A DNA stretch of 23,123 nt from Nitrospinota bacterium (lineage in GTDB: Bacteria; Nitrospinota; Nitrospinia; Nitrospinales; VA-1). Every line of letters begins with the position of its first letter. The stretch's first letter is position 1. The position numbers are program-made. Where the stretch lies: positions 1-23,123 of the forward strand of contig JAYNIA010000045.1 in NCBI GenBank assembly GCA_038108555.1, given 5' to 3'. Shown piece after piece: positions 12,001 through 17,471 of this stretch.

Positions 12001-15000
12001 GGCCCTCGAATCCTGCGATGTTGCTATTGATTTTACAACCCCGGCTTCCAGCATGTTTACTCTCAACGCAGCCGCACAAAGTGGGAAGTCCGTTGTGGTA
12101 GGAACAACTGGATTTTCTGCAGAACAAAAAAAAGATATTTCTGAGATTGCAAAAAAAATTCCTCTCGTAGTTGCACCCAATATGAGTATCGGGGTGAACG
12201 TATTGTTTAAGCTCGTTGCAGATGCAGCACGTGTTTTGGGTGACGATTATGATGTTGAAATTGTCGAAGCCCACCATAAGTTTAAAAAAGATGCGCCCAG
12301 TGGAACTGCCGTCCGAATCTCTGAAATCGTAGCCGATTCTTTAAATCGCAATCTCGAAGAGGTGGGGGTGTATGGCAGAAAAGGACTTACCGAACGAACT
12401 CCAAAGGAAATTGGTGTCCATACCGTGCGCGCTGGGGATATAATAGGAGAGCATCGGGTTTTGTTTGGCGGTATGGGAGAAAATTTTGAAATTTTTCACC
12501 GCGCCCAAAGCAGACAGACCTTCGCCAGAGGGTCTATCCGTGCAGCACAATGGATACTCAATCAACCTAAAGGGATTTATGATATGCAGGATGTCCTGGG
12601 GTTGAAATAGAATGAAATAAAGCTATGAAAAACGACAAGCCAAATGAAGTGGAGGAAAAAAAAGGCTTGAGTTTTGTGCGTCGTGACTTTTTAAGGCTCC
12701 TTTCTTTTGCTGGTCTTTCTACTTTTCTTCCCGGTCGGGCCTCTGCCGAAGTAGACTACCGCAACGATAAAAACGTTCCCAGGCAATACATTCAAAACCG
12801 CGATGTTCCAGGGTTCCATATTCGCAGCGCGAATCCCTTTCTAGGGGTGGACATGGGAAACTGGGGACTCGCCGTTGGGGGGATGGTCAAGAATCCCATA
12901 GGACTCGGTTACGAGGATTTGTTCGGATTCAAAATGCAATCCCAAGTCTCCCGGCTCAAATGTGTGGAATGCTGGTCGGCGAAAGCGGAATGGGAAGGAT
13001 TCAGTTTTTCCGAGTTGGTTGAAAAAGTACAGCCGGACCCTACAGCAAAATATGTTTATATCCAATCCGCCGACTCTTACTATGAAAGTTTTTCCGTAGA
13101 GGAATTATTGCGTCCCCGGGTTTTGTTTGTGCTACGTATGAATGGAAAGTCTTTGAGCAAAGACCATGGTTACCCGTTGCGATTGATTATTCCCTATAAA
13201 TACGGGTACAAGAATATCAAGTACATCACGAGCATCAAATTCCTGGATACCCGAAAAAGGAATTATTGGTCTAACAGCGGGCCTTACTCGGTAGATGGAA
13301 CCATTCAACCGGGAATTGACCACCCTCTCGATTTCAAGAAAAAGCCCTTGCCCATCAACGGTGGTGAAGTTTTTCATTTCTTCGACAAACGNNNNNNNNN
13401 NNNNNNNNNNNNNNNNNNNNNNNNNNNNNNNNNNNNNNNNNNNNNNNNNNNNNNNNNNNNNNNNNNNNNNNNNNNNNNNNNNNNNNNNNNNCTTTTCCTT
13501 TGTGCTTGCGATTCTCACGAAGTGGTACAGATTAAAGTAGATGTTCCATCCGGGATTCAGGTTCCTGAAGAGATGGTTTATATCCCGGCCGGAGAATTTA
13601 TCATGGGACATAAAGAAGAACCGCGAACCCGGTTGGGAAAAACCGTAACATCCCATGCGTATCTTATTGATCGCTATGAAGTAAGTCGGGAGCAATATAA
13701 AAAGTTTAATCCCACGTATTCTTTTTCACCAAAGTCGGGCCTTTACCCAGTCACGCATGTTACCTATTCAGAGGCTCTGGATTTTTGCAAGGCCAAAGGC
13801 AAACGGTTGCCCACCGAAGTTGAATGGGAGAAAGCTGCAAGAGGCACTGATGGTAGAAAATGGCCGTGGAGTATTTTTGTCGATCATCCCAACAATGGTT
13901 TCTCGGGTTTCATGTCGGAGCCGGTGGACAAAAGGAAGGAATGGATCAGTCCCTATGGCGTTTATGGAATGGGGCATAACGTTTGGGAATGGATTGGAGA
14001 AGCTTATACTTATCCCGGACAACCTGAAAATCAAAAAGGCTTGTTTAAAGTGATTCGGGGAGGATTGCTACAGACGCATATCACGATAAAATTTTCACCC
14101 ACCTATTTCAGAAACTGGATGGAACCAAAATCAAAATTAAATTTTATAGGGTTTCGTTGCGCGAAGAATGCAGGGTGAGAGAAAGAAGTTAGTAGTCGCC
14201 TCTAAGGTGACTGGTAATTTCTTTTGCGGCGCGTTCAAATAATTTTTCTTCAGTACCGCCTGTAGGACCTCCTTTTACCCAGGAATGCACTTCCCAGGCT
14301 CCCACCATTTGGCGACCATCAAAAAGGGCGACTTTGACCCTTAATTCCGATTTGGCCGAATCCGCAAACCCCATGGAAGCGATTCGTAAGGCCCGGTTAC
14401 CCTCATCATATTCGAGGACTTTATATTTAAGGCGGTAGCGGGCACTTTCCCCTGCAAGAGCATAACTTGTATCTTGTATTGCTTTTTCAATCGCACCTTG
14501 CAATTGAGAACCGGCATCCTGTAGATCAAAACTGCGGGCAGTCAAATCTATCAGTACAATCGTGTTTTCGGCGTTTTGGTATCTTTTTTTGGTTACCGAA
14601 CCCACACCGGAACATGCCGAAAGTGCAAGGATAGAAATGATTAAAATATTGGCGATGTATTTCATAACCAAATATTTTAACAAAATTTAAGCCAATTTTT
14701 CAATGCATTAGTGGAAAAACACCCGGTTGGAAGGGGTTTTGCCTGTTAGGTGGAAAAAGCAAAAAATATTTTGGGTTGCTGGAGAATGATCTAACTGCTT
14801 CCCACGTTAGCGGGTGAACCAGTGCAGGACACTTTCTTCAATCTGGCTGAACCAGAGTTGAACTTCGATGGGAATGAGGCTGTTTATATAAGTCATATAG
14901 CCGGTGGCAAGAACAATTCCTAAAACAATAAGAAGAATTCCACTGAAAATATTGGTGGTGTGGAGGAAAATGGTTTTTCCAGCGATTGTAACATCCCAAC

Positions 15001-17471
15001 CTTTCCCTCGTAGTAAGGTCCAGAACAAGCCGTCTTTGGGAAGGTTGCCGCATAATGTGGCTACAAGGATCAGTGGCAGGCCGAGCCCAACCGCATAAAA
15101 GAATAATAGGTTCATTCCCTGAAGCACTGTTTTTTCAGAAGCGGCAAGCATGAGAATGCTTGAAAGAATCGGTCCCACACAGGGAGTCCAGCCGAGAGCA
15201 AAAGTAGCCCCAAACAGGAAGAAGCCGATAAATGTGGAAGCGGGTTTTCCCTGGAAACTGGCCCCGGAAAATCCTTTTCCAAAAAGGGTCATGACGCCAA
15301 AGATGACAACGATTGCGCCACCAATTTGCGAGATCTGGAACATATAATCGCGCAATAATTGGCCCAAGGCACTGGCCGAAGCCCCCATGGCAACAAACAA
15401 CGTTGCCAGCCCGAAAAAGAAAGCGAGAGACATCATTCCCATACGTGCTCGGTCGGTTTGCGCTGTCACTGCAAAATAAGCAGGGAGAATGGGCAAAGTA
15501 CAGGGAGATAAAAAACTGAATACCCCCGCGACAAAGGCGAGCAGGGTTAAAACAAGAATTCCCGAATCGGGTAGATTGGATTTTGGAGCGAAAGGATTGA
15601 ACGCAGCTTTTTCTTTAGGGGCGGAATCTCCCAACAAAGATTTGGCAACAGACTCAACCTTTTTGGATGACTCCGCTGATGTTGTTTTGCTGGCAAAGGA
15701 CAATCCCGTGTTGACTATTGCCGGTTTATTTTCGCTGGCACAACGAAATCCCAAATCAGGACCCGGCTCATCCGGGTTTGCAAATTGCCGATGGCCACTG
15801 CGGGCAAACATTTTTATGGCGTTGTCATACATGGCTCCCGGAAAATGACCAATATCACTGGCCGAGTGTCCGCGTAAAACTTTATATCCTGAGTCGTAAT
15901 ATTCACTTTTATAGGTACTTCCTTTAAAAGGCTTATAGTCATCCTTCACCCATTCCCAAACATTACCTACCAGGTCGTGAACTCCCTCCTTTGTTGCCGA
16001 TTTTGGAAAGCTGCCAACCGCAACAGGTTTGTTCTTGCTGCCCGCCTTTTTGGAAAGGTTTGCGAAATCCGGTTGAAACTCATTTCCCCAGGGATATTCA
16101 TTGCCCCCGGTTCCTTTTGCGGCACGTTCCCATTGTTTTTCAGTGGGTAACGTTTTATTGGCCCATTGGCAAAAATTGGAGGCATCAAACCAAGTCACCC
16201 AGGTGACAGGTTCTTTTGCTGTTCCTTTCGGAAAATTATTTTCTTTCCAGTAATCTGGAGCAAGGGCACCCACATCATCTACATATTTTTTATAGCGTTC
16301 GTTCGTGACCTCAAACGTGTCAATGTAGAATCCTTTTAGAAAAATTTTTTGTTGCGGTGTTTCATCTGCATACCAGGGTTTGGGGATTCCCAGTGACAGA
16401 GCTTCAGCGGACTCATCTATTTTATTGGTACCAAAAAGAAAATGTCCGGAAGGAATATGAACCATTTCCCCTTCCAGGGAATGGGATGATTGAGCCCATC
16501 CCATTGCGGGAAAGGAGAGGACGGCAAGAATAATGAAAAATATTTTTAAGCGCTGAAGCAAGTGCTTATCCTTTACTTGAGAAGGTTTTCGAAATAAAGA
16601 ATATTACTGGGGGTTGCCCAGTCTTCTGCACCATAAAGAGCACCAATGATTTTTCCCTTTGGATCAATCATAAAGGTGGTGGGAAGGCTGACCACACCAA
16701 AAAGGTTGCTGGCTTTTAAACGTTGATCGAGAAGGACGGGGAAATTTAATTTATGTGCCCTTACAAAAGGTTTCACGATGGTAGCGCCATACATATCGTT
16801 CGAAACAGCCAAAAGGACAAAGTTTTTGTTTTTAAACCTTTGGTACAGGGTTTCCAGTGAAGGCATTTCTATTTTGCAGGGTCCACACCAGGTTGCCCAG
16901 AAGTTTACGAGAACATACTTTCCGCGAAAATCGCGCAGGCTGACTTCTTTGCCTTCCAGATTTTTTAAAGTGAAATTCGGTGCGTCAACCCCTTCTTCAA
17001 TTTGTGCAAAAGCAGGGCCGGAAAAAAACAACAGAAGTGTCAGCACAATGGTTTGGAAAATTATTTTGTGTAATGGGATTTTCACTAAGGGTCTGTACGC
17101 TTAAAACAAAGCGAGGTAATGGATAAAACGATGTTCAATTTGTGAGCGGAGTTATTCGACTTGCTCTATACAACGTACCATGGGAATGGCTTTTTTAAGC
17201 GCTTTTTCAATTCCCATTTTCAAGGTCATGGTGGAACTGGAGCAGGAACTGCAAGAACCGACAAGACGCAGTTTTACCACGCCATCTTCAATATCGACCA
17301 ATTCCACATTACCCCCGTCCTGCATTAGCATGGGCCGCAAGGTTTCGAGGACTTCTTCGACTTCTTCTTTCATAGATTCCATAAAGCAAGTGGTTGAATC
17401 CCGAGAATTTTAAACCGAAGAAAGCACACTTTTAGTTTGCGATGGGACGGGTCGGGGATTATCGTCCGTTA

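Follow-up and report, generated by a model that had tools for sequence, protein, structure and literature searches.

CcdA moves electrons over the inner membrane, from thioredoxin in the cytoplasm to thioredoxins in the periplasm. The prototype CcdA consists of the membrane domain only, as described in a passage of PMC3322552. Here we describe a CcdA domain fused behind an exported domain of the formylglycine-generating enzyme (FGE) fold, encoded in a 23,123-nt contig of a Nitrospinota bacterium (the whole stretch analysed, hereafter the window). The Nitrospinales, to which this genome belongs, depend on periplasmic redox proteins and are named as major marine nitrite oxidisers in the title of PMC3578206. 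The fusion gene comprises the following features.

14807..16561, minus strand: FGE-fold::CcdA fusion gene, 584 aa (ORF; single frame in 90/102 Nitrospinales genomes)
16493..16561, minus strand: signal peptide, residues 1-23, ending AMGWA-Q (read from the sequence)
15737..16471, minus strand: FGE-type C-lectin domain, residues 31-275 (Pfam PF03781)
16364..16429, minus strand: paralogue-specific loop, residues 45-66, with invariant D49, G58, P60, K61 and D66 (identity within and between paralogues)
15758..15862, minus strand: former active-site groove segment, residues 234-268 (register from PDB alignments)
15572..15727, minus strand: flexible Ser/Ala/Thr/Lys/Pro-rich linker, residues 279-330 (identity and pLDDT)
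14810..15565, minus strand: CcdA domain with six membrane helices (PDB 5vkv alignment)

The ORF and the Pfam limits (FGE-sulfatase at residues 31-275, E 1.4e-46; DsbD_TM at 338-529, E 1.5e-17) confirmed the fusion reported in the genome-wide survey's note. The seven transmembrane helices claimed there for the CcdA half were, by hydropathy and in the model, six membrane helices plus the signal peptide, which has its hydropathy peak at residues 1-19 and is 24% identical among orthologues. The CcdA half aligned with CcdA of PDB 5vkv (E 1.7e-25) across both PC motifs, and the catalytic residues Cys354 (SPC) and Cys461 (TPC) were invariant in 89/89 sequences. The NCBIfam DsbD score was 43 against a cut-off of 330, and the protein ends after CcdA; measured against the prototype definition of CcdA, it carries an extra exported domain in 51/51 genomes.

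The full-length count of 90/102 was made by hand. Among the other 12 genomes, six had a gene truncated where the contig stops, its two domains still sharing a frame, one had it split by a frameshift (74% complete), and five gave no match (57-83% complete). In the 51 genomes of at least 90% completeness, spanning four families, the fusion was never split and was alone in reaching the DsbD_TM cut-off, always fused; all Nitrospinales are kin, and genome counts are not independent. The source genome likewise had a single DsbD_TM match, as the survey had reported, and a Pfam profile search of it found no DsbD_2. A sole DsbD_TM gene agrees with the survey's proposal that periplasmic reductant passes through the fusion, but the route itself is something we infer, DsbD_TM, DsbD_2 and Ferric_reduct being the only families excluded. 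The genome also encodes four or five exported ResA-like thioredoxins and, elsewhere, a complete System I ccm operon with CcmE and its own CcmG. Around the fusion, the window contains the following.

16573..17085, minus strand: ResA/TlpA-like thioredoxin (WCGPC) with a cleavable-looking signal peptide (judged by eye), directly upstream of the fusion
14189..14683, minus strand: DUF4410-like lipoprotein (weak Pfam match below cut-off), downstream of the fusion
13492..14178, plus strand: second FGE-fold gene, a lipoprotein with an invariant His in RGGLxxxH; its start lies within the N run
12625..13391, plus strand: Tat-signal MsrP-like molybdoenzyme (CVECW; Pfam PF00174); its last codons lie within the N run
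13392..13491, no strand: run of 100 N, spanned by an apparent 517-aa ORF
17152..18563, minus strand: upstream cluster of NifU-like protein, 2x[4Fe-4S] ferredoxin, JAB protein and [2Fe-2S] ferredoxin

The thioredoxin gene lay immediately upstream of the fusion in 18/18 Nitrospinales loci examined. It had been described as following the fusion; it is indeed a neighbour, but upstream in the reading direction, and GTG at 17085 is a likelier start than the 17046 given earlier. The DUF4410-like lipoprotein was found downstream in 12/18 loci, and the NifU-like/ferredoxin/JAB cluster kept its order in most of the 18. Relatives have two separate genes here, and the apparent MsrP-FGE fusion, a 517-aa ORF reading through the N run, is an artefact. 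A search for longer MsrP-FGE forms gave 11 matches among 1532 candidates, with one two-domain protein (P0273) that reads as a frameshifted read-through.

The core of the modelled FGE-type domain (pLDDT mostly 73-91) matched the folds of CalU17, ToxD and human FGE. Mean identity of the domain was 69%, with 53/245 invariant columns (n=89 sequences). The linker is 40-60 residues long and 20% identical among orthologues, with pLDDT <50 at residues 283-332; in the whole-fusion model (pTM 0.47) the halves did not pack confidently against each other. The domain has two cysteines only, Cys131 and Cys274. Loss of the FGE catalytic cysteines, claimed earlier, was borne out: in PDB alignments D236 and P241 occupy the positions of Cys336 and Cys341, the copper-Cys register (GGS+3, GGS+8) having been set on human FGE and on its C336S/C341S entries. 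In the groove segment, G238, H239, P241 and R258 were invariant among orthologues. Identity within orthologues versus between paralogues was 0.71 versus 0.12 for this segment and 0.81 versus 0.10 for the loop at residues 45-66, while core segments of the fold still kept 0.41-0.70 between paralogues. Judged from the sequences, the high within-orthologue and low between-paralogue identity of groove and loop is the pattern of specificity-bearing surfaces.

The source genome has 29 FGE-fold Pfam matches. Each of the 51 genomes of at least 90% completeness had 19-38 (median 28), which turns the survey's hint of an order-wide expansion into a finding; in the NxrA-bearing Nitrospirota, 21/21 had 6-19, and the ESM Atlas search gave FGE clusters only, commonest in Nitrospirota and Nitrospinota. 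Pfam Sulfatase gave no match in the source genome (91.85% complete) or in four single-contig relatives (G020, G037, G073 and G075) with 23-31 FGE genes. The claimed lack of sulfatases applies to these genomes but not to the order, since 30/50 other Nitrospinales had 1-7 Sulfatase-family matches each. The RGGSW...GFRC frame said to be kept in all 29 paralogues was not literally so in all of them: the fusion reads RGHS, others read RGMS, RGNG or RGGL, and three end in GFRT, GFRI or GLRC. The C26 paralogue has an in-frame stop; it and C13 were dropped from the paralogue tree.

The cytochrome c and cupredoxin neighbours stressed by the survey exist (two paralogues precede two cytochrome c genes and one precedes a cupredoxin), but the strongest neighbourhood signal came from MsrP-type molybdoenzymes, pairings that the survey had missed, including the one inside the window. 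Three of the five MsrP-type genes in the source genome touch an FGE gene (chance ~1e-4). Pair A, that of the window, was co-oriented and adjacent in 41/43 loci (42 genomes) and ~1 kb apart or less in the other two; pairs B and C were kept in 30/30 and 14/14 loci, respectively, and the FGE protein of pair C has a conserved CxxC. The C7-type MsrP had a co-oriented FGE neighbour in 0/16 loci and a convergent one in five, and in Nitrospirota FGE genes lay beside Mo-enzyme genes in 0/30 loci. Proximity of pair A to the ccdA operon is confined to families f1 and f4, where the two converge, and so provides no link. The window MsrP-like gene matched PDB 1xdq (E 5.1e-23), and its product is by homology a Mo enzyme of the sulfite-oxidase-family type. 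Its orthologue L079 scored 114 on the curated MsrP model against a cut-off of 207, which the C34 copy exceeded (268); pairs A and B fall below it and share an extra invariant Cys (CVECW). MsrQ (PF01794/Ferric_reduct) exceeded its cut-off in 0/51 Nitrospinales, and family f5 has plain msrPQ.

A complex model of pair A, built with the same-genus copy from G105 and not with the window sequences, passed with a score of 0.81, the best of three controls scoring 0.00; the mark was reached by 116/157 solved complexes and 2/215 mismatched pairs (a rough calibration, given our own alignments). Runs shared at least 89% of contacts, with partner pLDDT of at least 89. In the model, the enzyme places a loop in the former FGE active-site groove, where the FGE-side interface comprises W175, 201-207 and 218-228. 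The window FGE lipoprotein is predicted to be the partner of the upstream Mo enzyme, binding through this groove, and the loop-in-groove pose may be partly remembered from solved FGE-peptide complexes. The modelled complex is a paralogue pair and not the fused domain, and fused-domain positions mapped to its interface showed no enrichment in conservation (0.78 versus 0.77 for the rest of the domain); both points were counted against docking by the fused domain. The enzyme loop is also kept in two Nitrospirota copies lacking an FGE neighbour (L276 and L277; G189 has no FGE gene), so that loop conservation is uninformative on binding and this enzyme type can do without the partner.

In the nearest CcdA relatives the N-terminal slot is either empty or filled by a YyaL-like barrel, in some preceded by a DUF255 thioredoxin; the slot of this one CcdA subfamily is modular, swapped between unrelated folds. 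Such barrel::CcdA fusions were seen in Zetaproteobacteria, Motiliproteus, Deltaproteobacteria MAGs, Nitrospirota, Nitrosotalea, Woesearchaeota and Methanosarcinales, and FGE genes adjoined barrel-type or unfused CcdA in 0/33 loci. Among the best 150 cluster representatives, below which weaker fusions could rank, both domains outside Nitrospinales occurred in P0123 only. On the CcdA tree (row L215 dropped) the fusion has a single origin (99/97). The sister family f7, placed with support 99/99, has an unfused CcdA and one FGE gene, and CcdA is also unfused in 5/5 NxrA-bearing Nitrospirota checked; that CcdA works unfused there was counted against docking. Gain in Nitrospinales and loss in f7 are both compatible with the tree.

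The reading we favour, with somewhat better than even confidence, is that the FGE-fold domains are non-catalytic docking modules and that the one on CcdA draws a periplasmic partner to the site at which the transporter releases reductant. It rests on the absence of the FGE copper cysteines, the strong constraint on a domain joined to a variable, disordered linker, the groove and loop specificity pattern, the modular slot, the conserved FGE/MsrP-type pairs and the pair A model. A working CcdA is indicated by the aligned and invariant PC motifs, the sole DsbD_TM gene, and the thioredoxins and ccm operon to be served. As the motifs and family knowledge suggest, Cys354 and Cys461 would take electrons over the inner membrane from thioredoxin in the cytoplasm and pass them to thioredoxins of the periplasm: the ResA-like one encoded next door, the System I protein CcmG and two or three others. 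On its tether, the exported domain would grip through its old groove one specific periplasmic partner and keep it at this site; the partner may be the soluble ResA-like thioredoxin, an enzyme client or a further paralogue of the FGE fold. The other paralogues would form an old adaptor set, its members distinguished by their groove sequences; from the one pair modelled, at least one is predicted to bind an MsrP-like molybdoenzyme by way of the groove.

Alternatively, the fused domain may bind a cofactor or small ligand (copper, iron or haem, via His239 and nearby acidic residues) and act as a chaperone, sensor or enzyme at a site of cytochrome c or cuproprotein maturation, which we consider unlikely. 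H239, S233, R258, D269 and W202 were invariant in 89 sequences, and a His recurs at the His239 place in paralogues C4, C43, C21:4757 and C31 and in the window lipoprotein. The invariant His239 and His206 suit a metal or haem site equally well, an observation counted against docking. The cytochrome c and cupredoxin neighbours, and an HmuY gene touched by C21:4757, point the same way. The C2 paralogue (g00346), a dihaem protein with CxxxCH and CxxCH motifs, keeps its C-x4-C in 24/25 loci (one unparsed); the survey was right about its FGE spacing, but the pair lies one residue later than human Cys336/Cys341. Catalytic FGE-fold domains exist, with EgtB, OvsA and PvdO among the structure and sequence matches. 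Against such a site, the domain offers one His and no Cys pair, and the fusion scored far under the curated cut-offs of the EgtB/OvoA/SenA group (83.5 versus 360, 82.4 versus 420, 40.2 versus 400) and of PvdO and GldK/GldJ (45.6 versus 500, 53 versus 350, 22 versus 458). Pfam found no DinB-type metal domain in the fusion, the complete ccm operon lies elsewhere, and the modelled His-bearing paralogue puts a protein loop in its groove.

Decidedly improbable is a durable accident, in which CcdA merely anchors an independent periplasmic FGE-fold protein and the halves have unrelated jobs. The long variable linker, the unpacked halves, the unfused CcdA of f7 and Nitrospirota and the single origin would all fit, and so many FGE genes per genome would make a chance fusion easy. 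Yet the fusion is unsplit in all 51 good genomes of four families, and other lineages place a different periplasmic domain at this very position in CcdA proteins of the subfamily. We give very little credence to a redox relay in which Cys131-Cys274, like DsbD-alpha, is reduced by the ResA-like thioredoxin and hands the electrons onward. The domain does occupy the alpha position of DsbD and ScsB, whose alpha domains are mutually non-homologous (in a passage of PMC3322552), both cysteines are invariant, and other Nitrospinota families have canonical three-domain DsbD. However, the pair recurs in 23/29 paralogues (counted by hand; lost together in two) and aligns with cysteines of human FGE and of the human FGE paralogue; it is a structural pair of the fold, a disulfide in FGE structures, and the domain has no CxxC or other dithiol. 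An FGE held reduced by CcdA matches the fold, the sequence similarity and the database names, but is practically negligible given the replaced Cys336 and Cys341, which we count as already refuting it, and the missing Sulfatase here and in the four single-contig relatives.

A tentative and rather doubtful extension of the docking reading is that de-activated FGE domains serve as periplasmic wiring, the CcdA domain and the paralogues routing thiol-borne reductant to client enzymes that include the MsrQ-less MsrP-type molybdoenzymes. CcdA, soluble thioredoxins and the CxxC of the pair C FGE protein would be the carriers. If true, the DsbD superfamily would gain a fourth architecture, periplasmic Mo reductases would have a drive independent of quinol, and the parallel expansion among the NxrA-bearing Nitrospirota would mark the system as part of nitrite-oxidiser life. 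Our literature search, which covered papers outside subscription, found none on the fusion, the FGE expansion or the FGE/MsrP pairs, and the main text of the N. gracilis genome paper contains no occurrence of sulfatase, formylglycine or CcdA. About 1% of Nitrospinales genes carry a wrong annotation, as sulfatase activators or non-haem iron enzymes, and the FGE-fold genes may now be given a role that can be tested, along with a first complex predicted for one of them. The pairs also raise the question of what returns MsrP-type enzymes to the reduced state in genomes without MsrQ.

Compared with known systems, the fusion shares six helices, both PC motifs and an adjacent thioredoxin gene with CcdA of Thermus thermophilus (5vkv) and the Rhodobacter prototype; unlike the prototype, it has a membrane domain preceded by signal peptide, 250-residue domain and linker, and has the W-x-x-L-x-G-K-G-W hairpin and C-terminal tail of its CcdA subfamily. 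Like DsbD and ScsB (alpha-beta-gamma), it places an exported domain before the membrane domain, with no second transporter of the family encoded in the genome, but it lacks the N-terminal redox dithiol and the C-terminal thioredoxin and has six helices instead of eight. The YyaL-barrel::CcdA and DUF255-thioredoxin::barrel::CcdA proteins belong to the same CcdA subfamily (39-54% identity) and use the same slot in the same gene order (thioredoxin, extra domain, CcdA), but fill it with a YyaL-homologous helical barrel. FGE (SUMF1) and its inactive paralogue SUMF2 share the fold, core motifs and Ser333- and Trp-equivalent residues; the fused domain is without copper cysteines and without a sulfatase client. 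NirV is an FGE-fold accessory protein encoded beside nirK. The MsrP-type partners resemble MsrPQ in having a Tat-exported Mo enzyme, with the C34 copy above the MsrP cut-off, and differ in having an FGE-fold neighbour gene where MsrQ would be expected. FGE-type C-lectin domains that serve binding after export or on the cell surface are described, in passages of PMC13713981 and PMC5006420 and through a 2y3c match, for TagR, the DGR targets Mtd and TvpA, and GldK/PorK. TagR of Pseudomonas aeruginosa is a periplasmic FGE-fold protein whose PpkA binding was modelled and mutant-tested (a passage of PMC13713981), and FGE-type DGR proteins hold their ligand site in the same C-terminal region as the groove (a passage of PMC5006420). 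Those proteins serve secretion, sensing or host binding, with no tie to thiol or molybdoenzyme redox in these passages, and the FGE domains here differ from DGR targets in having conserved orthologues without hypervariability.

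The fusion reads as a signal peptide (judged by eye and by hydropathy), an FGE domain, a linker and CcdA, and it lies in the window together with the following features.

14807–16561, minus strand: FGE–CcdA fusion ORF, 584 aa (FGE-sulfatase, residues 31–275; DsbD_TM, residues 338–529)
16573–17085, minus strand: ResA-like thioredoxin, directly upstream of the fusion
17152–22221, minus strand: run of GGDEF-like, mreB-like, unknown 111-aa, 2Fe-2S ferredoxin, JAB protein, 4Fe-4S ferredoxin and NifU genes
81–1691, minus strand: SoxC/SorA-like Mo enzyme, then a small cytochrome c-like gene (side observation)
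1913–3379: SelO, near the SoxC/SorA-like gene
5962–7977: multicopper oxidase, near the SoxC/SorA-like gene

The run from GGDEF-like to NifU was conserved at this place, upstream of the thioredoxin gene, in most of the 18 loci compared, and only the window among these carried a hemerythrin gene (18634–19062) inserted in it.

The CcdA part aligned with the solved CcdA structure 5vkv, its two Pro-Cys motifs in register, and Cys354 and Cys461 were invariant in 89 sequences; six membrane helices were found in it, not the seven claimed in the genome-wide survey's note. Mean identity to the window protein was 69% for the FGE domain, 20% for the linker (40–60 residues, rich in Ser, Ala, Thr, Lys and Pro) and 81% for CcdA, and the model of the fusion consisted of two separately folded units (pLDDT 69.9, pTM 0.47, linker <50). 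The signal peptide, together with the DsbD topology described in the available part of PMC3322552, suggests that the FGE domain is periplasmic.

Whole-genome profile searches of the host genome (91.85% complete) returned one DsbD_TM match and 29 FGE matches, with 0 matches for DsbD_2 and for Sulfatase; an NxrA gene was present on contig C3. By hand count, 90 of 102 Nitrospinales genomes carried the full fusion in a single frame, the other 12 comprising six in which a contig end cuts it, one frameshift and five incomplete genomes without a match. In all 51 Nitrospinales genomes at least 90% complete, which hold 19–38 FGE genes each, the fusion was the sole DsbD_TM match over the cut-off. These order-wide counts bear out the note's claims of a single-frame fusion, a sole DsbD_TM protein and an FGE expansion, as well as its hint that the expansion spans the order, and neither fusion nor expansion is therefore an artefact. 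The claimed absence of sulfatases held for the host genome and for four single-contig Nitrospinales relatives (23–31 FGE genes each, no Sulfatase match) but not across the order, as 30 of 50 other Nitrospinales had 1–7 matches each.

Pairing with molybdoenzymes was observed for several FGE paralogues. Six Oxidored_molyb genes were found in the host genome, five MsrP-type and one SoxC/SorA-like, and three of the MsrP-type genes directly adjoin an FGE gene in the same orientation (chance ~1e-4). The genes of pair A, present in the window, lay side by side in 41 of 43 loci (42 genomes; within ~1 kb of each other in the remaining two), frequently with stop/start overlap; pair B was adjacent in 30/30 loci and pair C in 14/14. 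Pairs A and B represent an old duplicate, their FGE genes being sisters on the tree (95/83), and in both the groove of the FGE protein has an invariant His and the enzyme an additional invariant Cys; the pair-C FGE protein carries CxxC-P in 14/14, and its Mo enzyme scores over the MsrP cut-off. CxxC-P stands right before the first core strand in three FGE paralogues (loci L019:3999–5505, L018:4000–4794 and L025:4084–4737). The CxxC-P paralogue on contig C34 precedes a true MsrP in 14/14 loci, all keeping the motif, and is a candidate MsrQ substitute. MsrQ over the cut-off was found in 0 of 51 Nitrospinales genomes and in 3/3 genomes of family f5, which has plain msrPQ.

Because a run of N interrupts pair A in the window, its complex was modelled with the copies from genome G105, whose sequences are 89% and 82% identical to those in the window. 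The model scored 0.81 (top control, 0.00) and passed a mark that 116 of 157 solved complexes reach, against 2 of 215 mismatched pairs; with our own alignments fed in, this calibration is rough. Contact agreement between runs was at least 89% and partner pLDDT at least 89. The predicted interface comprises loop 203–214 and residues 97–99 of the enzyme, and residues 146–151, W175, 201–207 and 218–228 of the FGE protein, which form the old groove. No solved complex of the two families was among the PDB matches examined, and FGE–peptide structures do exist, which may bias the loop-in-groove pose. The CVECW-type Mo enzyme of two Nitrospirota genomes (L276, L277) had no FGE neighbour, and the partnership is therefore lineage-specific. 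The modelled complex speaks for binding by a paralogue and says nothing on the fused domain.

Core segments of the fused domain were 0.41–0.70 identical to 26 paralogues, while loop 45–66 (0.10 vs 0.81 within orthologues) and segment 234–268 (0.12 vs 0.71) diverged, a pattern by which the FGE paralogues look like specific binders. Interface positions mapped from the pair-A model onto the fused domain showed no excess conservation (0.78 vs 0.77 elsewhere), which counts against this for the fused domain itself. Segment 234–268 is the place of copper in FGE. FGE-type DGR proteins show their ligand site in the broadly matching region, according to the available part of PMC5006420.

CcdA reduces periplasmic thioredoxins. 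Four or five exported thioredoxins are encoded in the host genome, along with a System I ccm operon (complete at L029:5258–11493, ccmE-F-H-x-A-B-C-G; a separate CcsA-like gene, L028:1495–2280, adjoins haem synthesis genes). We somewhat favour the fused domain being a non-catalytic docking module for a CcdA partner, since the CcdA motifs are intact, the gene is single-copy, the tethered domain is conserved without catalytic Cys, surfaces are paralogue-specific, gene pairs are conserved and MsrQ is missing. An FGE paralogue is predicted to grip its MsrP-like enzyme through the groove, and by extension from that pair the fused domain would bind a partner of CcdA.

That the domain binds a cofactor instead is unlikely, and that the two halves are unrelated in function is more doubtful still. 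A redox relay is quite improbable: Cys131 and Cys274, its only Cys, are common to 23 of 29 paralogues and jointly lost in two, as expected of a structural pair, whose equivalent is a disulfide in FGE structures; DsbD-alpha identity was ruled out on the same pattern. FGE activity has next to no chance, as the copper ligands (GGS+3 and GGS+8, as located by the entries for human FGE and its mutants C336S and C341S) are replaced by Asp236 and Pro241, which confirms the reported loss of the Cys pair and rules out FGE identity, and no Sulfatase was found in the host genome or the four single-contig relatives. A fold search matched CalU17, ToxD, human and bacterial FGE, EgtB, PvdO and TvpA, and the fusion scored far under the NCBIfam cut-offs for EgtB, SenA, OvoA, PvdO, GldK/J and DsbD.

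The secreted C2 paralogue (L007:4024–5037; contig C2:168623–169639, plus strand) joins two haem motifs, CxxxCH and CxxCH, to an FGE domain in which GGSWFDCLSYGCG is near-invariant, and was found in 31/31 Nitrospinales genomes searched. The note held that it keeps an FGE-like Cys pair; C-x4-C is indeed present in 24 of 25 loci, one residue off the FGE register. It is the top candidate for a genuine enzyme in the FGE set, possibly a dihaem copper enzyme. Elsewhere, an HmuY-family gene touches an FGE-fold lipoprotein gene whose groove segment has a His (L023:3315–4789), and an in-frame TAA breaks a C26 paralogue (L005:4005–4785; C26:9205–9984, minus strand), either a pseudogene or an assembly error. 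Two large FGE proteins without signal peptide (L021:3990–6383 and 10302–13574; NACHT–FGE and long coiled coil–FGE) diverge from the remaining paralogues and resemble conflict-system sensors.

The N-terminal slot of this CcdA is modular. Both domains occurred together in one representative only among the best 150 at 50% clustering, and the closest CcdA relatives either have nothing there or carry a YyaL-homologous helical barrel, in many cases behind a DUF255 thioredoxin; their hosts are Zetaproteobacteria, Motiliproteus, Deltaproteobacteria MAGs, Nitrospirota, Nitrosotalea, Woesearchaeota and Methanosarcinales. In Chloroflexi such CcdA is unfused, and Zetaproteobacteria have a thioredoxin–barrel gene, then a barrel–CcdA gene. 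YyaL-barrel–CcdA and thioredoxin–barrel–CcdA fusions were seen in bacteria and archaea (L141–L157, L148, L163, L165, L166, L179, L216), preceded in Zetaproteobacteria and Deltaproteobacteria MAGs by a thioredoxin–barrel gene, with napA-like or napGH-like and Mo-cofactor genes nearby. In the CcdA-domain tree (n=40), the 13 FGE-fused sequences grouped in a single clade (99/97), and the unfused CcdA proteins of family f7 were its sister group (99/99); families f5 and f6 have three-domain DsbD, and f9 plain CcdA.

Among 121 sampled Nitrospirota, all 21 with NxrA (at least 55% identity) had 6–19 FGE genes, and 21 of the other 100 had six or more; the NxrA-bearing ones are probably one clade, so that the link is a pattern and no test. 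No paper found in the open-access literature, including main-text passages of PMC13713981, PMC10907252, PMC3322552, PMC5006420, PMC9751292 and PMC3578206, describes FGE combined with CcdA, the spread of FGE genes across the order or pairs of the FGE/MsrP type; these FGE-fold genes may be annotated in Table S1 of PMC3578206. Both CcdA and FGE domains of the binding type are already known, and TagR, as described in the accessible portion of PMC13713981, is an earlier case of a periplasmic FGE domain that serves protein binding.
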